Assembly (NCBI RefSeq): GCF_000026545.1
Contig: NC_011601.1
DNA from: Escherichia coli O127:H6 str. E2348/69
Lineage (GTDB): Bacteria; Pseudomonadota; Gammaproteobacteria; Enterobacterales; Enterobacteriaceae
Strand: one strand, 5' to 3'
Length of the DNA: 64,000 nucleotides
Shown here: positions 89 through 62,709 of the stretch, in pieces
How the letters are laid out: each line of letters begins with the position of its first letter
Position numbering within the stretch: position 1 is the stretch's first letter
Position numbers and translations under genes: made by a program
Notes under the pieces: generated by a model
The model's database searches: none
The model's input: only the letters and a program-made list of their open reading frames with translations
What the model was told of the DNA's origin: nothing

Positions 89-1294
89 ATGGCCTTTTCT
101 CAAGCGGTTAGCGGATTAAACGCTGCCGCCACCAACCTCGATGTTATTGGCAACAATATCGCCAACTCCGCCACCTACGGCTTTAAATCAGGCACGGCCT
201 CTTTTGCCGATATGTTTGCCGGTTCGAAAGTGGGACTGGGGGTAAAAGTTGCTGGTATCACTCAGGACTTTACCGATGGCACGACCACTAACACCGGGCG
301 TGGTCTGGACGTTGCTATCAGCCAGAACGGTTTTTTCCGTCTGGTAGACAGCAATGGTTCGGTGTTCTACAGCCGTAACGGACAATTTAAGCTGGATGAA
401 AACCGTAACCTGGTGAATATGCAAGGTTTACAGCTGACGGGTTACCCGGCAACCGGTACGCCGCCGACTATTCAGCAAGGGGCGAATCCGACCAATATTT
501 CGATCCCGAATACCCTGATGGCAGCGAAAACTACCACCACGGCGTCGATGCAGATCAACCTGAATTCCAGTGATTCGCTTCCCTCTGTTAACGCATTTGA
601 TGCCAGCAATGCGGATAGCTATAACAAAAAAGGTTCGGTGACTGTTTTCGATAGTCAGGGTAATGCTCATGACATGAGCGTCTACTTTGTGAAGACCGGG
701 GATAATAACTGGCAGGTCTACACCCAGGATAGTAGTGATCCAAACAGCATTGCGAAGACAGCGACAACACTGGTGTTTAATGCCAATGGCGTTCTGACCT
801 CAAATCCAACAGCGAATATTTCCACTGGCGCAATTAACGGCGCAGATCCCGCCACGTTTAGCCTGAGCTTCCTCAACTCCATGCAGCAAAATACCGGCGC
901 TAACAACATTGTGGCAACCACCCAGAACGGCTACAAACCGGGCGATCTGGTGAGTTATCAAATCAATGATGACGGTACGGTTGTCGGCAACTATTCCAAC
1001 GAACAAACCCAACTGCTGGGGCAGATTGTACTGGCGAACTTTGCCAACAACGAAGGTCTGGCATCCGAAGGCGACAACGTCTGGTCCGCTACGCAATCTT
1101 CTGGCGTGGCGCTGTTGGGTACAGCCGGGACGGGCAACTTTGGCACACTGACCAACGGTGCGCTGGAAGCGTCCAACGTCGATCTCAGTAAAGAACTGGT
1201 CAATATGATCGTTGCCCAGCGTAACTATCAGTCTAACGCCCAGACCATCAAAACCCAGGACCAGATCCTCAATACGCTGGTTAACTTACGCTAA
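89..1294 (+). CDS. flgE: flagellar hook protein FlgE
   Basis: 401-aa ORF with rod/hook N-terminal motif (MAFSQAVSGLNAAATNLDVIGNNIANS) and C-terminal motif; operon position. Confidence 0.95.
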   Translation: MAFSQAVSGLNAAATNLDVIGNNIANSATYGFKSGTASFADMFAGSKVGLGVKVAGITQDFTDGTTTNTGRGLDVAISQNGFFRLVDSNGSVFYSRNGQFKLDENRNLVNMQGLQLTGYPATGTPPTIQQGANPTNISIPNTLMAAKTTTTASMQINLNSSDSLPSVNAFDASNADSYNKKGSVTVFDSQGNAHDMSVYFVKTGDNNWQVYTQDSSDPNSIAKTATTLVFNANGVLTSNPTANISTGAINGADPATFSLSFLNSMQQNTGANNIVATTQNGYKPGDLVSYQINDDGTVVGNYSNEQTQLLGQIVLANFANNEGLASEGDNVWSATQSSGVALLGTAGTGNFGTLTNGALEASNVDLSKELVNMIVAQRNYQSNAQTIKTQDQILNTLVNLR

Positions 1295-1313
1295 TCGCTG
1301 ACGGGATAGCTCA

Positions 1314-2069
1314 ATGGATCACGCAATTTATACCGCGATGGGAGCAGCCAGCCAGACGCTGAATCAACAGGCGGTAACCGCCAGTAATCTGGCCAATGCC
1401 TCAACGCCCGGTTTTCGCGCGCAGTTAAACGCCTTGCGCGCAGTGCCGGTGGAAGGGCTTTCACTGCCCACGCGCACGCTGGTAACGGCGTCAACACCGG
1501 GTGCAGACATGACGCCCGGCAAGATGGATTACACCTCGCGCCCGCTGGACGTTGCGTTGCAGCAGGATGGTTGGCTGGCCGTGCAGACCGCTGACGGCAG
1601 TGAAGGGTATACGCGTAATGGCAGCATTCAGGTTGATCCTACCGGGCAACTGACAATTCAGGGACATCCGGTGGTAGGCGAGGCGGGGCCAATTGCTGTG
1701 CCGGAAGGGGCGGAAATCACTATTGCTGCCGATGGCACAATCTCGGCGCTGAATCCGGGCGATCCGGCAAATACGGTTGCGCCAGTGGGGCGTCTGAAGC
1801 TGGTGAAAGCCACGGGCAGCGAAGTCCAGCGCGGTGACGATGGCATTTTTCGTTTAAGCGCAGAAAGCCAGGCTACGCGTGGGCCGGTACTGCTGGCAGA
1901 TCCAACCTTGCGTGTGATGTCGGGGGTTCTGGAAGGCAGTAACGTCAATGCCGTTGCGGCAATGAGCGACATGATTGCCAGCGCACGGCGTTTTGAAATG
2001 CAGATGAAGGTGATCAGCAGCGTCGATGATAACGCAGGCCGTGCCAACCAACTGCTGTCGATGAGTTAA
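1314..2069 (+). CDS. flgF: flagellar basal-body rod protein FlgF
   Basis: 251-aa ORF with rod-protein N- and C-terminal motifs; gene order flgE-flgF-flgG. Confidence 0.95.
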   Translation: MDHAIYTAMGAASQTLNQQAVTASNLANASTPGFRAQLNALRAVPVEGLSLPTRTLVTASTPGADMTPGKMDYTSRPLDVALQQDGWLAVQTADGSEGYTRNGSIQVDPTGQLTIQGHPVVGEAGPIAVPEGAEITIAADGTISALNPGDPANTVAPVGRLKLVKATGSEVQRGDDGIFRLSAESQATRGPVLLADPTLRVMSGVLEGSNVNAVAAMSDMIASARRFEMQMKVISSVDDNAGRANQLLSMS

Positions 2070-2162
2070 TTGAAAGGATACATGACAAGTATAAGTTGCC
2101 CTATGCGCAAGTTTATCGGGTCTATGGGGGCAATCGCAATTTATCGATTTAGCGAGCTCTTG

Positions 2163-2196
<34 letters not shown>

Positions 2197-2222
2197 AGAA
2201 GACATATGCACTTTGTCACTAA

Positions 2223-3023
<801 letters not shown>

Positions 3024-3075
3024 GGCTTAACCGGTGGCAGGTTCACCGGTTTACTGATTTTTGAAGATGATAGCC

Positions 3076-3774
3076 ATGCAAAAAAACGCTGCGCATACTT
3101 ATGCCATTTCCAGCTTGTTGGTGCTTTCACTAACCGGCTGCGCCTGGATACCCTCCACGCCGCTGGTACAAGGGGCGACCAGTGCACAACCGGTTCCCGG
3201 TCCGACGCCCGTCGCCAACGGGTCTATTTTCCAGTCTGCTCAGCCGATTAACTATGGCTATCAACCGCTGTTTGAAGATCGTCGACCACGCAATATTGGC
3301 GATACGCTGACTATCGTGTTGCAGGAGAACGTCAGCGCCAGCAAAAGCTCCTCTGCGAATGCCAGCCGTGACGGTAAAACTAATTTTGGCTTTGATACTG
3401 TGCCGCGCTATTTGCAGGGGGTGTTTGGTAACGCTCGTGCCGATGTCGAAGCCTCCGGTGGTAACACGTTCAACGGAAAAGGCGGGGCCAATGCCAGCAA
3501 TACCTTTAGCGGTACGTTGACGGTGACGGTTGACCAGGTACTGGTCAACGGCAACCTGCATGTGGTGGGTGAAAAACAGATCGCTATTAATCAGGGTACC
3601 GAATTTATTCGCTTCTCTGGCGTGGTTAATCCACGCACTATCAGCGGCAGCAATACCGTACCATCTACTCAGGTGGCGGATGCGCGCATTGAATACGTAG
3701 GCAATGGCTACATTAACGAAGCGCAAAATATGGGCTGGTTGCAGCGTTTCTTCCTTAACCTGTCGCCAATGTAA
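3076..3774 (+). CDS. flgH: flagellar L-ring lipoprotein FlgH
   Basis: ORF 3061-3774; start set at internal Met (MQKNAAHTY...) to give the expected 232 aa; lipobox LTGC. Confidence 0.9.
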
Positions 3775-38860: not shown

Positions 38861-41800
38861 TCAAGCGATCGCGTTCTCTTCCAGTTCACGCATAAACTGG
38901 CGTACCCATTCGATACGCGTTTTCCGCTCGCTCAAATCCTGAATAAACTTCAGACGCGTCGGACCATCAAGGCGGTAATGCTGCGGCTGTTTTTGCAGCA
39001 AACCAATCAACCAGGCTGGATTAACGTGATTCTTCTCGGCAAATTCGATCACGCCGCCTTTCTCATTACCTTCCAGCTTCCTGATCCCCAGTTTCTGCGC
39101 TTGCTGGCGCAGACGGGCAATATCCAGCAGGGTACGCGCCGGATCCGGCAGCAGGCCGAAGCGATCGATAAGCTCGACTTTGATCTCTTCCAGTTCGTTT
39201 TCCGTTTTGGCGCTGGCAATACGTTTGTAGAACGACAGACGCGTGTTCACGTCAGGGATGAAATCATCTGGCAATAGCGACGGCATCCGCAGCTCGACTT
39301 CTGTTTGCTGGCTGGTGAGATCTTCCAGCGACGGCTCGCGTCCGGCTTTCAGCGCATCGACGGCGTTTTCCAGCAACTCCATATACAGCGAGAAACCGAT
39401 GGTTTCCATTGAGCCGCTTTGTTCTTCGCCAAGCAGTTCACCCGCGCCGCGGATCTCCAGATCGTGCGTTGCCAGCGCAAAACCTGCACCGAGATCTTCC
39501 AGCGAGGCAATCGCTTCAAGACGTTTTTGCGCATCGGTAGTCATCGCTTTTGGATGCGGCGTCAGCAGCCATGCATATGCCTGGTGGTGCGAACGCCCGA
39601 CGCGACCGCGCAACTGGTGCAACTGTGCCAGACCGAAGTGATCCGCACGTTCAATGATAATGGTGTTGGCGGTAGGAATGTCGATCCCGGTTTCGATAAT
39701 GGTGGTACAAACCAGCACGTTGAAACGTTGATGATGGAAATCATTCATCACCCGTTCCAGTTCGCGCTCACGCATTTGCCCGTGACCGATAGCAATCCGC
39801 GCTTCAGGTACCAGTTCTGCCAGCCGTTCGGCGGCTTTCTGGATGTTTTCCACATCATTGTAGAGATAATAAACCTGTCCTCCGCGCAAAATTTCACGCA
39901 GGATCGCCTCCCGGACCACCAGACTGTCATACTCACGGACAAAGGTTTTAACTGCCAGACGACGGGCGGGCGGCGTGGCGATAATCGACAGATCGCGCAT
40001 TCCGCTCATTGCCATATTCAGCGTACGTGGGATCGGCGTTGCGGTAAGCGTCAGAATATCCACGTTCGCGCGCATCGCTTTAATGCGCTCTTTATGACGT
40101 ACCCCGAAGCGGTGTTCTTCATCGACAATCAGCAGGCCTAAATCTTTAAACTTGACGTCACTTTGCAGCAGTTTGTGCGTACCGATCAGAATATCAATTT
40201 TCCCTTCCGCCACTTCCGCAAGGATTTGCGTCTGCTCTTTGGCGCTGCGGAAACGGGAGATCATTTCGATACGTACCGGCCAGTTGGCGAAACGGTCGCG
40301 GAAGTTGTCGTAATGCTGCTGCGCGAGAAGGGTGGTAGGCACCAGCACCGCCACCTGTTTGTGGTTATCTACCGCCAGGAAAGCGGCGCGCATCGCCACT
40401 TCTGTTTTACCAAAGCCAACATCGCCGCACACCAGACGATCCATTGCCAGCGGCTGACACATGTCGCTAAGCACCGCATTAATGGCTTGAGCCTGATCCG
40501 GCGTGGTTTCAAACGGGAAGCTGTCGCAGAATAACTGATACTGCTCACGATCGTGTTTAAACGCGAAGCCCTCTTTGGCGGCGCGTTGCGCGTAGATATC
40601 CAGCAATTCCGCCGCCACATCACGCACTTTTTCCGCCGCTTTCTGCCGTGCGCGTGACCAGGCATCGCCACCAAGTTTATGCAGTGGTGCGTTTTCTTCT
40701 GCGCCACCCGCGTAACGGCTAATCAGATGCAGTGACGACACCGGAACATACAGTTTGGCGTCGTTGGCATAGGTGAGCATCAAATACTCGCCAGTAATGC
40801 CTCCAGCTTCGAGCGTGGTCATTCCGGCATAACGACCGACGCCGTGCTCCAGATGGACCACCGGCTGACCAATATGCAGCTCCGCAAGGTTACGGATCAG
40901 TGTATCGGGGTTGATGGCGCGGCGAGAATCCTGACGACGACGGGCAACGCGTTCACCGAGCAGATCGCTTTCGCAAATCAGCGCCAGATTACGTACCGTA
41001 TCGACAAAACCATGCTCTGCAGCGCCAATCATCAGATAACGCCCACGGTCGCTGGCTTCATCAAGACGCATAATGCGTTGCGGAGCAATTTTAATTCGCG
41101 CGAGCAGTTCACCCAACGCTTCACGGCGGCCTTCACTTTCTACCGAGAACACCACCGGACCGTCGAAAGACTCGAGGAACTTACGCAGCGCATCCAGCGG
41201 CGCTTTTTGTTGTGCCTGAATGGCCAGGTCTGGCAGTTTCTGGAAACCTAAATTGGCATTCGCTGCTTTTGTCGGTAAATGTTCAGTTTTTAGCTGCACA
41301 CGGGGCCAGTTTTTCAGCTCTGAGAAGAGCTCATCCACCCGCAGCCAGAGCGATTGTGGTGGCAACAGTGGGCGCATTGGGTCGACACCGCGATTCTCAA
41401 AACGCGCGAGCGTGTCAGCCTGGAAACGTTCGGCACTGTTTTCCAGATCGCCAGTATTTACCAGCAGCGTATTGGCAGGGAAATAACTGAACAGTGGCGG
41501 CAGCGGTTCGCTGAAGAATAGTGGCTGCCAGTACTCGATCCCGGCAGGTAATGTGCCTTTACTCACTTGCTGGTAAATATGTTCCGGATCGCGCTTCACT
41601 TCGAAGGTATCACGCCACTGGCTGCGGAACAGTTCAATTGCCGCTTTATCGGTCGGAAATTCGTGCGCGGGCAGCAGATTGATCGCATCTACTTCCTCCA
41701 GCGTGCGCTGGCTATCGACGTCAAACACCCGCAGGCTGTCGATTTCATCATCAAAGAAATCAAGACGATAAGGCAGCTCACTCCCCATAGGGAAGAGATC

Positions 41801-52128: not shown

Positions 52129-53247
52129 TCAAATAACCAACTTAACCCATTCCTGACCTCGAGTATCGTTATAGCGATCGGTGGTTGCCTGGACTTTATG
52201 TCCTAGTAATGTTTTTGTATCAATACCCTGTGCACGGTACAGCCGTTCTGATAGAGAGCGTTGTTCATGAAATGTTGGCGGAGTTTTTCCTGCTGGTGGA
52301 ATTATCCCAGCCAGATCCCGTGCTTTGGCAAAGTAGTCGCTCAGGTTGTCTTTACTCATCGGCTTCGGTTGTTTCTGGTGCCGACTATGGATTAGATATG
52401 GACTTAATATTCTGTCTCGGCACCCATCAATAACTTCTTTTAACGTTATCCCAATGGCATCACAGCGTAGTGTAAGCGGTAACGCCAGACGCATTCCGGT
52501 TTTTCCCTGGGTGATATGCAAGTGTTCGTTCCACACATCTGAAAAACGCATGTGGCAAATGTCATCACGGCGCTGACCAGTAACAATCGCAAGAAGCATT
52601 GCGTTACGGATAAAGTGTTTTTCAGGCGTTGCATTGTAAATTTTTTGCCAGTCTTCCATGGTGAGCCTGGCTCTGGTTACTTTAGGGATCGGTTTACGGG
52701 TAGCCTCCGGAGGATTCCATCCAGGAGGAACTTCCCCTGCATGCTGTGCTTCTTTATAAATATCAACCCATAATCCACGATTTACTCTCGCTGTGCTGAC
52801 CATGTCTTTATCCAGCCACTCATCCAGTATTAATGCAAAGTCTCTTACTTCCAGTTCTTTCAATGGGTGGTTTCCCAGACGGGAAACCAGGTATGCAGCC
52901 ATTCGGGTTTTTTCTTTGTGAGTTGTAGCTGCAATATCTCCATTTTTCAGTCGCGTGTCCTGTATTTTCAGATATCGATCAACCCATGCCTTTAATCTGA
53001 TACCCTGACGTTTTGTTGCTGACGGACTTTCATCAATTTTGCGCATGAAATATTCAGCTTCTGCTGCAGCTATTCGCTGATTGGCTGTGGAAGCGATTTT
53101 TTCTGCCTTACCTTTGTCTGTTCCGAGTCCGTGAAATTTTCCAGTCACAGGATTTTTATACTGGTAGTAAACTCTGCCAGTTCTGCGATCAAACTTTTCG
53201 TAAAGACCGGCTACGTCAGTGCTGTTTTTTCGTGGCCTCGGTGACAT
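52129..53247 (-). CDS. int: prophage tyrosine integrase (lambda Int family)
   Basis: 372-aa ORF; C-terminal catalytic region HEQRSLSERLY...LLGHK...RYNDTRGQEW parallels lambda Int. Confidence 0.9.
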   Translation of the reverse strand: MSPRPRKNSTDVAGLYEKFDRRTGRVYYQYKNPVTGKFHGLGTDKGKAEKIASTANQRIAAAEAEYFMRKIDESPSATKRQGIRLKAWVDRYLKIQDTRLKNGDIAATTHKEKTRMAAYLVSRLGNHPLKELEVRDFALILDEWLDKDMVSTARVNRGLWVDIYKEAQHAGEVPPGWNPPEATRKPIPKVTRARLTMEDWQKIYNATPEKHFIRNAMLLAIVTGQRRDDICHMRFSDVWNEHLHITQGKTGMRLALPLTLRCDAIGITLKEVIDGCRDRILSPYLIHSRHQKQPKPMSKDNLSDYFAKARDLAGIIPPAGKTPPTFHEQRSLSERLYRAQGIDTKTLLGHKVQATTDRYNDTRGQEWVKLVI

Positions 53248-53494
53248 GAGTTAAAATCTCCTTCAGTGCATCATCATCGCCAGTATGAATTTCCGGCGCA
53301 ATTCCCGTTTCACCAGGCCCAACAAATACTGCTCGGCGATCTATCAGCCAACGCCCACGAATTTTTTGTGGTCTTGGAACGATGTATCCTAGTTTTCCGT
53401 ATTTCACCAGGGTAGTGTTTGTTATTGGGAGACTGAACCGTTTTGGTTTCCACTCGTCGAGCGTTATCAGGTACTGTTCGCTCATGGCTATCAC
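53216..53494 (-). CDS. xis: prophage excisionase
   Basis: Small ORF overlapping the int start by 32 nt; winged-helix Xis-like sequence (YLITLDEW...); true start may be 53485. Confidence 0.7.
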   Translation of the reverse strand: MIAMSEQYLITLDEWKPKRFSLPITNTTLVKYGKLGYIVPRPQKIRGRWLIDRRAVFVGPGETGIAPEIHTGDDDALKEILTHVTEATKKQH

Positions 53495-53546: not shown

Positions 53547-56018
53547 TTAAAAATCAGCCTGATTCGGGATCAGTTTTTGCCAGATAGCTGAAACGTATTT
53601 TGCCTGGTGACGAGCGTCATCAAGTGCATTATGGCGCTCACCTTCGAATGGAATAGCCGTTCTGGCATCGAAGTCTATGGCTTTCCCCAGCTCAACGATT
53701 GTGCGTACATCGCGATCGTTGTAGTAACGCCACGGGCAGGGGATCCCCTGCCGTTCGTATGAACGGCGCAAAATCGTGTTGTCGAAGTTGGCTCCATTTC
53801 CCCAAACCTGAACAAAAAATTCACCGGAGTTTTCGTCGATAAATTCCCGCAATTGTAACAGTGCATCATCTAACGGGATTTCATCGGTCATAATGGCAGA
53901 TTGCGCTTCGCGTGATTGCTTAAGCCACCATTTAATGGTGTCCCGATCAATGACTCCGCCAGCAGTTTCCAGATCGATAGTCTTACTAAATTCCGGTCCC
54001 ATATCTCCGGTTTGCGGATCGAAAAATATTGCACCTATTGAGATGATCGGGGCATCAGGATTTTTTCCCATGGTTTCAAGGTCGATCATTAGATGGTCAC
54101 ACGTCCTGCTGGTGGATGTGATTTCGTGATGACCGTTCACCTTAATTGAGTGATCTGCCGTCTCGCCAGTCTCATTATCGCTATTGTGATGCTGATTGCC
54201 GCCAGTGTTCTCCTTGTGTGGATGCTCAGCGCCTTCCATTTCCTCCGGATCATCTTCCTGAACTTCAACCTGATACTCTTCATCGAATGTTTCCTGGTAT
54301 GTTGCGTCGCCCATCACCGCACCACAATCAGGGCAGTTGCCGCCGCCGGTCTGACCGCAGGCGGTGCAGACTTTTTCCACTTCCTGTTGCACTACTGGTT
54401 CAGGTAGTTTCGTTTCTGGCTCGTTTTGTTGCGTATTTGGGCTGTTTTGTTCCGCTTTCTGGTCGTTCTGTTCCGTTTCTTGCTGGTTCTGGTTCACAGA
54501 ATCGCGGGTTTCAATCCCCTTCACCCATTTCGGATCATTCGGATCGCTAATCCCTGCAACAAATTCACCACGTGATACTGCAAGCAGTTCATCGGCGTCA
54601 GGCTGGCTGATATTGGCTGCCTGCATAATTTTGTTTACTTCGTCAGCGGTAACTTTTACCGGCCCTGGTTGTGCGGTCGTGTCAGATGCACCAGTATTTT
54701 GTTGTGAACCTGAGTATGTACCGTTTTTGCGGGCGAAATATTCTTCTTTCGTGATTTCAGTAGCCCCTGCAGCCAGTGCCTTATCCAGACCAGAAAGTTT
54801 GTTTGCGCGACCGTATTTTTCGCTATCCTTGTCGGTGAAGAGGAAGTAGAACGGCCCTTCACGCTCTACAGATGGTTCGACTTCCACTTTGCATTCGGTT
54901 TTTTCGTTGTCCGGAATTGCCGTTTCCACTGCATCAGTTTCTGGTACTGGCGACGAGAGAGTATCAGTTGCGCTCTGATTTGTTCCTTCATCTTCAAACA
55001 CGCCCTTTGTAGTCAGGTATTCAGTAATGTATTTGTTCAGTGCCACAGGGTCTTTGTGAATGTCGATCGGACGTTCACGGACAAGGCCAAAAATAGTCTG
55101 GCGGTCGTAGCGAAGGGCATCAGGCTGTTTGCGCATTGATGCCGAGATACGCTTCCAGTCTTCGCGGTAGTTGTCGATAACTTCATTTTTTGCCCAGCGA
55201 TGGATGCTGCCGTCAATGTTTCCGGCATCCACATCACCAGGCCAGAGAGCGTAGGCCAGTTCGTCATCCAGTGTTTTCCATGTCTGCTTGTATTCGCGAT
55301 GAGTGGCAGCAATGACCGGGCTGATTTTTCCTGTTGAATTTTCAGTGTTCTGTTGATTGGCTCTGGCGCGGGCGAGATCAACAACAGACGTGTATTTTCC
55401 GGTTTCCTTGCGTTCACCTTCGCGACGTTTTTTCCAGATGCGCATCTCTGCCTGAATTTCGGGCCATTTGGCACCAGGCTTACATTTATGCTTAACCCAC
55501 CCGATGGCATGCAGCTTAAGCTCCGGATACATGGCGTTAACTTCTGGCATTTTCATCAACGCTTCAACGATATGTCCGTCGAATGTTGCCATGTCTTCCT
55601 GCAACAATTCCTGTGCGCTAATCACCATATCAACGGTGATGTTTTCACATGTGTCGAACTTAACCATGACAGCGTTCTGTACTTCAGGGGCCAGCTTGTC
55701 AAAAGTGACGTTCATCGGATCGGATTCAGTCTCAACCGGGACAAAAGAAGCAGAATCCTCATCCCAGCGGTTTTCCTGCATATATTCAGCATCCCATGAA
55801 TCGAGGGCAGGGCGGGGTATGCCAGGTTTATCCTCGCAGACAATAAATTTATAAGCGCAGTCCTGAGCAGCCGGATAATGTTCCAGGAATTGCCAGTGAA
55901 ATTTTGCTCGAGCACGGCGTTCGTCGCCAGCTTCAATGGCTGTGGCTACAGCCACAGCGCCTTCTTCCCTTGTTGCCAGTTCGTCAGGAATAGCGGCGCA
56001 AATAAAGACTTTACTCAT
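53547..56018 (-). CDS. prophage exonuclease with C-terminal DnaQ-like (DEDDh) 3'-5' exonuclease domain
   Basis: ORF 53547-56054 (alternative start MSKVF at 56018); C-terminus has DLETMG and HNALDDA motifs; central Gln/Asn/Glu-rich linker and a Cys4 cluster CTACGQTGGGNCPDCG. Confidence 0.7.
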   Translation of the reverse strand: MSKVFICAAIPDELATREEGAVAVATAIEAGDERRARAKFHWQFLEHYPAAQDCAYKFIVCEDKPGIPRPALDSWDAEYMQENRWDEDSASFVPVETESDPMNVTFDKLAPEVQNAVMVKFDTCENITVDMVISAQELLQEDMATFDGHIVEALMKMPEVNAMYPELKLHAIGWVKHKCKPGAKWPEIQAEMRIWKKRREGERKETGKYTSVVDLARARANQQNTENSTGKISPVIAATHREYKQTWKTLDDELAYALWPGDVDAGNIDGSIHRWAKNEVIDNYREDWKRISASMRKQPDALRYDRQTIFGLVRERPIDIHKDPVALNKYITEYLTTKGVFEDEGTNQSATDTLSSPVPETDAVETAIPDNEKTECKVEVEPSVEREGPFYFLFTDKDSEKYGRANKLSGLDKALAAGATEITKEEYFARKNGTYSGSQQNTGASDTTAQPGPVKVTADEVNKIMQAANISQPDADELLAVSRGEFVAGISDPNDPKWVKGIETRDSVNQNQQETEQNDQKAEQNSPNTQQNEPETKLPEPVVQQEVEKVCTACGQTGGGNCPDCGAVMGDATYQETFDEEYQVEVQEDDPEEMEGAEHPHKENTGGNQHHNSDNETGETADHSIKVNGHHEITSTSRTCDHLMIDLETMGKNPDAPIISIGAIFFDPQTGDMGPEFSKTIDLETAGGVIDRDTIKWWLKQSREAQSAIMTDEIPLDDALLQLREFIDENSGEFFVQVWGNGANFDNTILRRSYERQGIPCPWRYYNDRDVRTIVELGKAIDFDARTAIPFEGERHNALDDARHQAKYVSAIWQKLIPNQADF

Positions 56019-56110
56019 TTGTTTTAACCTCATGACAGATTTAAGGATGAACAAATCCCTGCCATTGCTGGCATATAAGAATGAAACCGGATATTTATTA
56101 CGGAACTGTT

Positions 56111-56302
56111 TTAAAGACCTGCCGGGATTTCGATATTATCCTGGTGAATAACTTTATCGACCGGGTAACAGTTACCGGGAATTTTCTGTTCGGTTGCTGC
56201 AGTCATACACTACTGCATTGTCCTGTGAACACTGACTGCAATATCAACTGGCTCTCCGGAAACAAGAAAAACTGTCAGAACAAGCACAAATGCTGAATTC
56301 AT
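56111..56302 (-). pseudogene. ydfD: ydfD-like lysis-protein gene interrupted by an in-frame amber codon
   Basis: MNSAFVLVLTVFLVSGEPVDIAVSVHRTMQ then TAG, then the frame continues CMTAATEQKIPGNCYPVDKVIHQDNIEIPAGL; total length equals a 63-aa gene; start overlaps the dicB stop as ATGA. Confidence 0.6.
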
Positions 56303-56487
56303 TGTGCACATCCTTTTGGCATCAGACGTAAACGAGCCAGCATTGAAACAATGCATATTTTATTTAATAGCTCCCGTTCTTGTTTTCTCTTGTTAATGGC
56401 ATCTTCAGTAAATACTGGGTTACTGATAGTGACACCAATTTCAAAACAACCTTCAGACGTATTAACGTTTGGTAATAACGTTTTCAT
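56299..56487 (-). CDS. dicB: cell-division inhibitor DicB
   Basis: 62 aa from internal Met (MKTLLPNVNTSEGCFEIGVTISNPVFTEDAINKRKQERELLNKICIVSMLARLRLMPKGCAQ); lies downstream of dicF in the dicA-side operon. Confidence 0.75.
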   Translation of the reverse strand: MKTLLPNVNTSEGCFEIGVTISNPVFTEDAINKRKQERELLNKICIVSMLARLRLMPKGCAQ

Positions 56488-56656: not shown

Positions 56657-56714
56657 AAAAAGGGCGGCAGAGCAGTCACGGAGTAAAACTGATACCGCCA
56701 AACGTCACCAGAAA
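56657..56714 (-). ncRNA. dicF: DicF small RNA
   Basis: Minus-strand sequence TTTCTGGTGACGTTTGGCGGTATCAGTTTTACTCCGTGACTGCTCTGCCGCCCTTTTT matches the recalled DicF sequence including its terminator hairpin and U-tail. Confidence 0.75.
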
Positions 56715-57055
56715 ATTGATAACAGAGGGCGTTGCAGCGGGGTTGTCACTTAAGCGTATGGTCAACCTGACAACCCGGTGTCCTCAACGGGGGAAGGAAT
56801 AACCCCGCCATACTTACCGCCGCGCCATTTCGCGGATTGCCACAACCGGAAGCGCACGGTCGACGAAAATTTAACGACAGGCTATCTATGAACCAGCTAC
56901 CTCGCCGTGCGCTTTCGCGTTATGGTCTGACTTTTCAGGGAAATATCCTTTCAGTAAACTGTCAGTGCCGGATGCTCACCCGTGTCCGGCGCACGCACTC
57001 CACCTCATCCGTGGAGAACTCCTTAATTACCAACCTTAGCTTCGTTGGTTAGCTA

Positions 57056-57274
57056 TTAACGCGGGTATGTAATCATTCTGGCAATGCTTAATGTCGCTGC
57101 TTTTTCCAGATTAGTGATATCCTGCTCCAGAGCGGACAGATTTTCAGCCTGCTTAGCCCTGGCTTCATTGGCCCATTTCAGATCCTGCGCTGCATTAATT
57201 TTCTGGCGCATCCACTCATAAAGTTCATCATCGGTATAGTCTGGCGCGATGATGACGGGTTCTCGTTTCTGCAT
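57056..57274 (-). CDS. ydfC: Qin-type small prophage protein YdfC-like
   Basis: 72-aa ORF in the expected position and size between ydfB and dicF. Confidence 0.6.
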   Translation of the reverse strand: MQKREPVIIAPDYTDDELYEWMRQKINAAQDLKWANEARAKQAENLSALEQDITNLEKAATLSIARMITYPR

Positions 57275-57303: not shown

Positions 57304-57432
57304 TCAGCCGTTAGATTTTGCCGAACTGGAAAGTGCCTGTTTAAATTCGCTGAAGCTGAGAGCTTCTTCGCCTTCGGCAAGACCTTCGAAGTATTCTTCG
57401 TAAGCCTTTTCCATGATTGTGTCGAAATCCAT
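57304..57432 (-). CDS. ydfB: Qin-type small prophage protein YdfB-like
   Basis: 42-aa ORF (MDFDTIMEKAYEEYFEGLAEGEEALSFSEFKQALSSSAKSNG), below the ORF-track cutoff; found by direct translation. Confidence 0.55.
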   Translation of the reverse strand: MDFDTIMEKAYEEYFEGLAEGEEALSFSEFKQALSSSAKSNG

Positions 57433-57433
57433 A

Positions 57434-57589
57434 TCACCCACCTGAATTTCTTTCCAGCCAGCGACGCGCTCCAGATTCGGTTTTAAACGTTTTGCTTTTG
57501 GTATACGTCATCGCGGTGAACGTACCGTCCTGGTTGGGGAACACGCCACATACCAGAGATTCGCTGTTGCCAAGATCGATAGTATCCAT
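57434..57589 (-). CDS. ydfA: Qin-type small prophage protein YdfA-like
   Basis: 51 aa from internal Met (MDTIDLGNSESLVCGVFPNQDGTFTAMTYTKSKTFKTESGARRWLERNSGG); the ORF-track frame extends to 57682. Confidence 0.55.
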   Translation of the reverse strand: MDTIDLGNSESLVCGVFPNQDGTFTAMTYTKSKTFKTESGARRWLERNSGG

Positions 57590-57780: not shown

Positions 57781-58188
57781 TTATTGATGTTTGTTACGTT
57801 TGCGAGCTTCTAGTAGCTCGGTGAATAGGCGATTAAAATTCTCAACGCGGGCACGGAGTTCGCTGATTTGTGCTTGCTGCTCTGATTTTGGAAGTGCGCG
57901 ATACAATCGCAACATCTCCAACTCATCTTCCGATAAGTCTAAGGCGCTGTTGAGTGCAACTGGTGGATCTGGTGTTTTATCCTCGTCACCAAACAGTATC
58001 CAAGTTGGTGAACATTGCAATACCTCAGCCAGGCGATGCAAATTTTGCCCGCGCGGGGCTGTATGGTCGCTTTCCCATAGTGAAATTGATGAGCCAGATA
58101 CGCCAGCAGCTTTGCTTAAATCGTTTTGACTTAAACCAACCTGTTTGCGTCTTTCTCTAATTCGTTGACCTAAAGTTTTCTCGTTCAT
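57781..58188 (-). CDS. dicA: prophage repressor, DicA-like (XRE-family HTH)
   Basis: 135-aa ORF; HTH region QRIRERRKQVGLSQNDLSKAAGVSGSSISLWE and the VLQCSPTWILFGDEDK segment recalled from DicA. Confidence 0.85.
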   Translation of the reverse strand: MNEKTLGQRIRERRKQVGLSQNDLSKAAGVSGSSISLWESDHTAPRGQNLHRLAEVLQCSPTWILFGDEDKTPDPPVALNSALDLSEDELEMLRLYRALPKSEQQAQISELRARVENFNRLFTELLEARKRNKHQ

Positions 58189-58265: not shown

Positions 58266-58493
58266 ATGTTTAAATCAGACGTAATTAATTTTTATGGGAC
58301 GAAAGCCAAAGTAGCGAAAGCTGCTGGTGTTGATCCATCTGCTGTTTCTCAATGGGGGGAACTGGTTCCTGAAGGTCGCGCGATGCGCCTGCAAGAGGCA
58401 TCCGGCGGGGAACTTCAGTACGACCCCAAAGTTTATGACGAATATCGTAAGGCAAAGCGGGCGGGGCGGTTGAACAATGAAAATCACCCCTGA
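58266..58493 (+). CDS. dicC: Cro-like regulator, DicC-like
   Basis: 75 aa from internal Met (MFKSDVINFYGTKAKVAKAAGVDPSAVSQWG...); divergent from the repressor gene. Confidence 0.75.
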   Translation: MFKSDVINFYGTKAKVAKAAGVDPSAVSQWGELVPEGRAMRLQEASGGELQYDPKVYDEYRKAKRAGRLNNENHP

Positions 58494-60526: not shown

Positions 60527-60801
60527 ATGGAGACTGTTTTTGACGCACTGAAAGCAATGGGAAAAGCCACATCCATAGAACTTGCTGCGCGCGTGAAGAA
60601 GTGCTGAACGAACTATGGGAACTGAAAAAGGCTGGTTTTGTTGATAAAAGCGCGTACACCTGGCGTGTGGCTGATAACAACGTTCAGCAGGAACAGCCAG
60701 CGCAGGCAGAACTGCCGGAAGAAACCACCACAATGAGTGAAGTTATGCAGCGCATACTGGCATTTTATCAGGGAAATGTTCGATATTTTAGACGTTACTA
60801 G
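60527..60801 (+). pseudogene. small prophage gene split by a frameshift
   Basis: [26 protein letters not shown] then stop at about 60605; the reading frame continues after a 1-nt shift as ...[25 protein letters not shown]...RYFRRY (60601-60801). Confidence 0.45.
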
Positions 60802-62140: not shown

Positions 62141-62709
62141 TTGAGAGACAACCATACTCAAATCTTCCACATTGCAGGAGATTTGAGTATGAATACGTCA
62201 CCGAGGAACAAAGACAGTATCATAGGCCCAAAAAGACCACTTCAGATATCTCATATCTGGGGGCTCCAAATCCGGCTTGAACTGGAAGGTAAAACGCGTG
62301 ATTTAGCTCGGTTTCAAGCAGAGCTACGGTGCTGCAACTGAAAAACTGGCAGTCCTATCCAATTTGAGATAACCAAAGGGACAAGAGAAGCTGTTTCTGC
62401 ATTGATAAAGCTTGGCAATTTACGCAGTAAAGACTACTTGTTCCGATCTCGGGTCGGTACTAACCAACACATATCAATCCTGCAATATAACCGAATCTTT
62501 CATAGGAGGGAGAAAAGCTTGGTCTCGAAGATTCGCTTTACAGCACACATTCCATGAGAAGAACAAAACCTTGCCTTGTCTGCAAGAAAACTAAGAATCT
62601 CCGGGTGATCCAACTTCCGTTGGGCCATAAGAAAACGGAAAGCACAGTTCGTTATCTGGGTATAGAAGTTGATGATGCATTAGAGATCTCTGAATCGATC
62701 GAAGTCTAA
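62141..62709 (+). pseudogene. decayed tyrosine recombinase (integrase-family) gene
   Basis: Recombinase segments spread over three frames: ...KRPLQISHIWGLQIRLELEGKTRDLARFQAELRCC / FEITKGTREAVSALIKLGNLRSKDYLF / SMRRTKPCLVCKKTKNLRVIQLPLGHKKTESTVRYLGIEVDDALEISESIEV (HxxR...Y catalytic tail). Confidence 0.6.

Follow-up and report, generated by a model that had tools for sequence, protein, structure and literature searches.

The window analysed here is a 64,000-nt stretch of the Escherichia coli O127:H6 str. E2348/69 chromosome (NC_011601.1), and annotations were taken from the chromosome record NZ_CP059840.2 of the same EPEC strain, to which window positions 40000–64000 were 100% identical. On the minus strand at 56111..56302 lies ydfD, a gene of the DUF1482 family whose 63-codon frame is interrupted by an in-frame amber codon at codon 31, as was confirmed by translation, alignment and a Pfam match. 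Read from 56302 down to 56111, the frame consists of 30 sense codons that are still translated (56213..56302) and encode the hydrophobic N-terminal domain MNSAFVLVLTVFLVSGEPVDIAVSVHRTMQ, a TAG at 56210..56212 (CTA on the plus strand), 32 further sense codons encoding CMTAATEQKIPGNCYPVDKVIHQDNIEIPAGL, and a TAA. Behind the TAG, a residual ORF of 31 aa in the program-made ORF list runs from Met33 to the natural TAA (MTAATEQ...PAGL; 56111..56206, minus strand) and carries the conserved C-terminal half of the protein, severed from its start. The sequence-only reading had described the interrupted frame correctly without stating its strand; no such frame exists on the plus strand of 56111–56302. 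No second copy of ydfD was found inside the 64-kb window.

When aligned with the ydfD genes of K-12 MG1655, ATCC 8739 and THO-006, the frame showed a single mismatch in 192 nt, G91T at window position 56212, which changes GAG (Glu31) to TAG. Codon 31 was GAG or GAA in more divergent DUF1482 alleles and encoded S, Q or D, and never a stop, in distant homologs (Salmonella, Klebsiella, PPompW phages). Reference ydfD genes therefore read through this codon with Glu, as the earlier reading had anticipated when it proposed comparison with K-12 and other prophages. A chance pattern was excluded, since a single base separates the locus from a known gene of 63 codons whose frame and natural stop it shares. 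With Glu31 restored, the protein matched Pfam DUF1482 (PF07358) over model positions 1–57 of 57 (E = 4.3e-26, 91 bits), while NCBIfam holds no model for YdfD or DUF1482. The uninterrupted frame of about 63 codons expected of YdfD is absent here, and judged by profile match and synteny the E2348/69 allele is a pseudogene member of the DUF1482/YdfD family and not a functional one.

The internal stop itself is not new: the public RefSeq annotation produced by PGAP already flags H4J01_RS14610, 'lysis protein YdfD', at exactly 56111..56302 as a pseudogene with the remark 'internal stop'. Among the papers searched, none named both E2348 and ydfD. Scans for promoters and terminators around ydfD gave match counts at the level of shuffled sequence and were set aside. 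An alternative ORF of 48 aa that begins inside dicB (56356..56210) was absent from the protein collection and was dropped. Opposite ydfD, a 71-aa ORF on the plus strand (window 56081–56296) runs codon for codon antisense to the gene, with no evidence of being a gene; it reads the TAG as CTA (Leu), which is synonymous with the CTC of K-12.

The dicB operon and its prophage

The TGA stop codon of dicB overlaps the ATG start codon of ydfD as ATGA at 56302..56299, in line with the coupling that had been noticed from the letters alone. dicB (56299..56487, minus strand) is intact and encodes a protein with the K-12 accession (WP_000854559.1), which scored 132.8 bits against the NCBIfam model NF049927, for which the cut-off is 100. 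Upstream of dicB, the gene for the small RNA DicF (56662..56713, minus strand) was matched at full length by Rfam RF00039 (76.7 bits with a gathering score of 48, model positions 1–52 of 52) and had no differences from K-12. Beyond it on the same strand, the RefSeq annotation mapped to the window places ydfC (57056–57274), ydfB (57304–57432) and ydfA (57434–57589), and then an intact 135-aa gene for a DicA-like helix-turn-helix protein, a predicted repressor (57781..58188, minus strand), whose product showed 56% identity to K-12-type DicA (WP_000448564.1, from ATCC 8739; E = 2e-51). Divergent from the repressor gene is a gene for a DicC/Cro-like regulator (58266..58493, plus strand), annotated as 'dicB transcriptional regulator DicC'. 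By annotation, the divergent DicA (CI-like) and DicC (Cro-like) pair followed by ydfA, ydfB and ydfC is that of a dicBF-type operon.

Two side observations concern the segment between ydfC and dicB. The ydfC–DicF spacer contains a 54-aa ORF antisense to the operon (window ~56888–57052, plus strand), which is unannotated in E2348/69, annotated in some genomes (WP_001340038.1, strain C7) and called on many public contigs. In GCA_013067925.1 (L046:1-892), ydfA is directly followed by a 61-aa dicB and the ydfB-ydfC-DicF segment is seemingly missing; provided that it is truly missing, this operon would be a DicF-less version.

On the other side of ydfD, 92 nt downstream, lies a full-length gene for a 3'-5' exonuclease of the YdfE type (823 aa; 53547..56018, minus strand), whose equivalents on related contigs carry the Pfam domains YdfE_N, YdfE_C and Rv2179c-like. 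The ORF list gives an 835-aa frame starting from TTG at this place (window 53547–56054, minus strand), compared with the 823-aa exonuclease of RefSeq. An integrase and an excisionase gene (52129..53485, minus strand) adjoin potC and form the left end of the prophage, so that the gene order is integrase, excisionase, exonuclease, ydfD, dicB, DicF, ydfC, ydfB, ydfA, the DicA-like repressor gene and the divergent DicC-like gene. ydfD has this position, directly downstream of dicB and upstream of the exonuclease gene, in K-12, O157, phage PPompW and the 20 contigs sampled as well.

The host prophage is a defective lambdoid element of ~40 kb between potC and potB, with ydfD in its early-left operon. 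It has lost capsid, tail-tube and tape-measure genes through a deletion that has brought fragments of a head-protease gene and a tail NlpC/P60 gene together (L032:40763-41211, outside the window), and it carries insertions of ISEc13, IS200C and an IS481-family element. Its several other pseudogenes include a frameshifted DUF1627 gene and an internal tyrosine recombinase gene with a frameshift and a stop (window 60527–60729 and 62189–62709). Holin, lysozyme and Rz genes of its own remain in the prophage.

The closest described counterpart is ydfD of the K-12 Qin prophage (WP_001083297.1), which occupies the same position in the DicF-dicB-ydfD-exonuclease order with the same ATGA overlap, is identical at 191 of 192 nt and follows a dicB encoding an identical DicB protein. 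The K-12 gene has GAG at codon 31, whereas the TAG of E2348/69 allows residues 1–30 at most. The two copies also differ in their surroundings: Qin lies at ydfJ and the E2348/69 prophage at potB/potC with a different DicA-type repressor, and the downstream exonuclease gene is full length in E2348/69 whereas its K-12 equivalent, ydfE, is cut by IS2.

Distribution and origin of the TAG allele

We searched RefSeq complete genomes for the exact 63-mer centred on the TAG and found it in 24 of the 3,491 E. coli genomes having the locus (~0.7%), while the exact K-12 version of the 63-mer was present in 1,868 records. The carriers came from people, cattle, dogs, chickens, a giant panda, fish, seawater and cucumber. 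All seven TAG loci that were inspected are flagged 'internal stop' in their annotation. In a much larger public protein collection, the exact 30-aa truncated product was found on 13 contigs.

The TAG allele was found in at least four prophage backgrounds. Besides the potC site of E2348/69, these were prophages at serU/mtfA with K-12-like dicA and dicC (C7, IAL7255 and FORC 064 copy 2), a prophage at serU/mtfA with a different immunity region (O157:H16 98-3133), and a tandem copy with another integrase (FORC 064 copy 1). FORC 064 (NZ_CP022664.1) thus has two TAG copies of ydfD in tandem prophages at serU/mtfA, 18.5 kb apart (L001:6419-6610 and L011:4941-5132). Over ~1.2 kb around ydfD, E2348/69, FORC 064 copy 1 and IAL7255 were identical, and there was one difference in C7 and five in O157:H16. 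The second FORC 064 copy was mosaic: its sequence resembles O157 as far as nt 18 of ydfD, dicB included, and E2348 from there on, including the TAG, which looks like a gene-conversion tract. All nine records that matched the 5.6-kb module of the window at ≥99% were TAG carriers.

This mosaic of flanking haplotypes indicates that a single ancestral G91T arose on a K-12-type haplotype and would then have travelled from one lambdoid prophage to another through homologous recombination or gene conversion; judging from the shared flanks, repeated identical transversions are much less likely than a single origin with recombination. The TAG allele was the only ydfD null seen here in several prophage backgrounds, unlike the other lesions described below, and it illustrates cleanly, on a small scale, how a point mutation can be passed among lambdoid prophages through recombination.

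Intact copies and other null alleles of ydfD

Outside the window, the ompW site of E2348/69 holds a prophage that looks more complete and carries a further complete DicF-dicB-ydfD module (NZ_CP059840.2 2730656–2731258; L056:35656-36258). This ydfD is an intact, paralogous gene of 63 codons with GAG at codon 31, its product has the accession of the O157 allele (WP_001090200.1), and the DicF of this module scored 72.5 bits. The protein is 94% identical to K-12 YdfD, with the differences S3T, V6A, M33V and I57N, and its lytic activity is putative. The strain therefore has two intact DicF genes, two intact dicB genes and a single intact ydfD. No further ydfD was found at the other sites inspected in E2348/69: the K-12 Qin site, where ydfJ is intact; serU/mtfA, which is unoccupied; the att-lambda prophage, which has a lambda-type early-left region without dicB; the torS/torT prophage, which has a Kil-type early-left region; the nleB/nleE island; and the far end of the potB/potC prophage. 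E2348/69 would accordingly seem to retain the potential for YdfD-type lysis through the ompW copy, and YdfD-dependent phenotypes in this EPEC reference strain should be assigned to that copy, with the potB/potC copy treated as null.

Null alleles of ydfD were rare in public data. The 31-aa C-terminal fragment, which is left by any 5' lesion, was found in 167 index blocks compared with 34,819 for intact K-12 YdfD (~0.5%). Contexts anchored on an exact DicB match had a 63-aa ydfD in 10 of 10 cases and contexts anchored on an exact YdfD match had dicB in 10 of 10, so neither sample gave a signal of asymmetric loss of ydfD relative to dicB. Intact ydfD alleles had a dN/dS of 0.22, indicating purifying selection, and each of the eight sequenced E. 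coli phages with the gene has it at full length.

Ten sites chosen by the 31-aa fragment, and thus enriched for lesions, held at least nine different ydfD lesions: the TAG, five frameshifts, one start-codon loss and two IS insertions. In these public assemblies (L019-L027, with ydfD at locus positions ~1405-1596), the frameshifts were an insertion of TG at nt 14, a gain and a loss of one base in the T-run at nt 31–36, an insertion of C at nt 68 and a deletion of A at nt 79; the start codon was changed from ATG to ATA, and IS3-family elements were inserted near nt 17 and near nt 28. The two T-run indels may be long-read assembly errors or genuine slippage. As in the TAG allele, these natural nulls have a broken 5' half and leave the 31-aa C-terminal ORF. 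As the lesions stand in these assemblies, ydfD is a gene inactivated many times, but their diversity does not show an excess over neutral decay.

Consequence and probable cause of the truncation

YdfD has been divided into an N-terminal domain of residues 1–28 and a C-terminal domain of residues 29–63 (Lu et al. 2022, PMC8835842), and it has been established, for the K-12 protein only, that its expression is lytic, that it binds IspG and that the lysis activity is inhibition of IspG (PMC8835842). Removing just 1, 2 or 5 residues at either terminus is enough to abolish killing (PMC8835842). YdfD has been likened to phiX174 E, an inhibitor of MraY, as a small protein that causes lysis by blocking a biosynthetic enzyme, which is IspG for YdfD (Lu 2022, PMC8835842). 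The two proteins have no sequence relationship, and ydfD is an early-left accessory gene and not part of the main lysis cassette of the phage. The interrupted allele can be compared, by analogy only, with lambda Sam7, a laboratory amber mutation in a lysis gene that leaves the prophage non-lytic in a non-suppressor host.

Six family members were aligned, and of the 12 columns that proved invariant, nine (C32, E38, Q39, C45, P47, E58, P60, A61 and G62) followed codon 31; in E2348/69 these residues are still encoded in frame yet lie downstream of the TAG. The C-terminal half was also the more constrained in a comparison of K-12 with cS51a (dN/dS of 0.15 compared with 0.27 for the N-terminal half). 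Translation coupled to dicB through the ATGA overlap would end after residue 30, with the hydrophobic N-terminal domain as its sole product, and the conserved C-terminal half would not be made, so that inhibition of IspG, and lysis with it, would be lost. dicB and DicF would be unaffected because both lie upstream of the stop. Given that published variants lacking 1–5 C-terminal residues no longer kill, the TAG allele is almost certainly non-lytic.

We consider the locus, with a probability of about 0.83, to be a genuine, heritable loss-of-function allele of ydfD that had a single origin, resides in the defective lambdoid prophage at potB/potC and most likely reflects the ordinary decay of an accessory gene. 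An error of sequencing or assembly in E2348/69, which had been named earlier as a reason to dismiss the stop, is effectively refuted: an identical TAG recurs in 24 complete genomes that were assembled independently and come from various hosts and countries, it is present twice in FORC 064, and the exact 30-aa product is on the 13 further contigs; the change is moreover a substitution and not a homopolymer indel. It is highly improbable that the gene still functions, whether by read-through or suppression of the amber codon, through a 31-aa peptide reinitiated at Met33, or through the 30-aa N-terminal domain, for example by occupying IspG. Met33 lies two codons past the stop and opens an intact ORF that holds eight of the 12 invariant columns (E38 to G62, with C32 falling between the stop and Met33), which would permit low-level reinitiation, but no Shine-Dalgarno sequence was found at a usable distance from Met33, the nearest AGGA being 14 nt upstream of the ATG. 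No tRNA gene, and hence no suppressor, was found in the 64-kb window, and the prophage tRNAs near it are for Ile and Arg. A UAG followed by U is an efficient termination context, which counts against read-through. [quoted passage not shown]

The sequence-only reading had further proposed that a self-toxic function would be lost through the nonsense mutation while dicB and dicF are kept; both of these are indeed intact, but the ompW prophage provides the strain as a whole with an intact ydfD homolog that is accompanied by a dicB and a DicF of its own. That the amber codon was selected for disarming the prophage, eliminating a toxic lysis protein while preserving DicB, with its roles in phage exclusion and division control, and DicF, would agree with the lytic nature of expressed YdfD, with the sparing of dicB and DicF by the mutation and with the persistence of the TAG allele and its spread into several prophage backgrounds. 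Diverse independent lesions like those found would also be expected under recurrent selection for loss, and in five of the 24 carrier genomes the TAG copy was the single match to a 63-nt K-12-type ydfD probe. We nevertheless regard such selection as unlikely, and less likely than decay, because an intact paralogous copy is retained in E2348/69 and null alleles are rare. The rarity of nulls and the purifying selection on intact alleles argue that there is no general pressure to purge ydfD. The gene was also full length in every DicB-anchored context sampled and in the eight E. coli phages, and the K-12 Qin prophage, which is far more degraded, keeps an intact copy. Co-expression of DicB or SulA prevents lysis by YdfD and DicA represses the operon (PMC8835842, PMC10448788), so that an intact ydfD is normally tolerated. 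A purge of a self-toxic gene as the reason for the stop is thus weakly supported and undercut by the intact paralog, and ordinary decay suffices to explain the lesion, since IS elements, deletions and other pseudogenes mark the host prophage as broadly degenerate. The mosaic copy of FORC 064 also suggested that a favoured 'disarmed' DicF-dicB-ydfD module might be spreading by gene conversion between co-resident lambdoid prophages, with the 30-residue domain, which binds IspG in vitro, perhaps serving as a decoy that shields the enzyme from full-length YdfD produced by co-resident prophages, an idea we consider quite improbable.

Ordinary decay thus remains the preferred explanation, and the lesion is a real but ordinary pseudogene, already annotated as such, that matters little in itself. 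Of wider interest is that, for all the toxicity of ydfD, well over 99% of its copies in E. coli prophages are intact, which speaks against the intuitive idea that hosts rapidly purge it. Point-mutation pseudogenes are common in the E2348/69 genome, so that the ydfD lesion is unremarkable for this strain; outside the window, internal stops or frameshifts were seen in uidC, mobQ, a prophage rusA, torS and dgcQ (L013, L014, L016 and L055). Elsewhere in the same chromosome, a type I restriction-modification operon was found to enclose a DarT/DarG toxin-antitoxin pair between its S and R subunit genes (NZ_CP059840.2 ~3.003–3.012 Mb; L018:3089-11734), on an integrative element that also bears nleB, nleE and a lifA-like gene.
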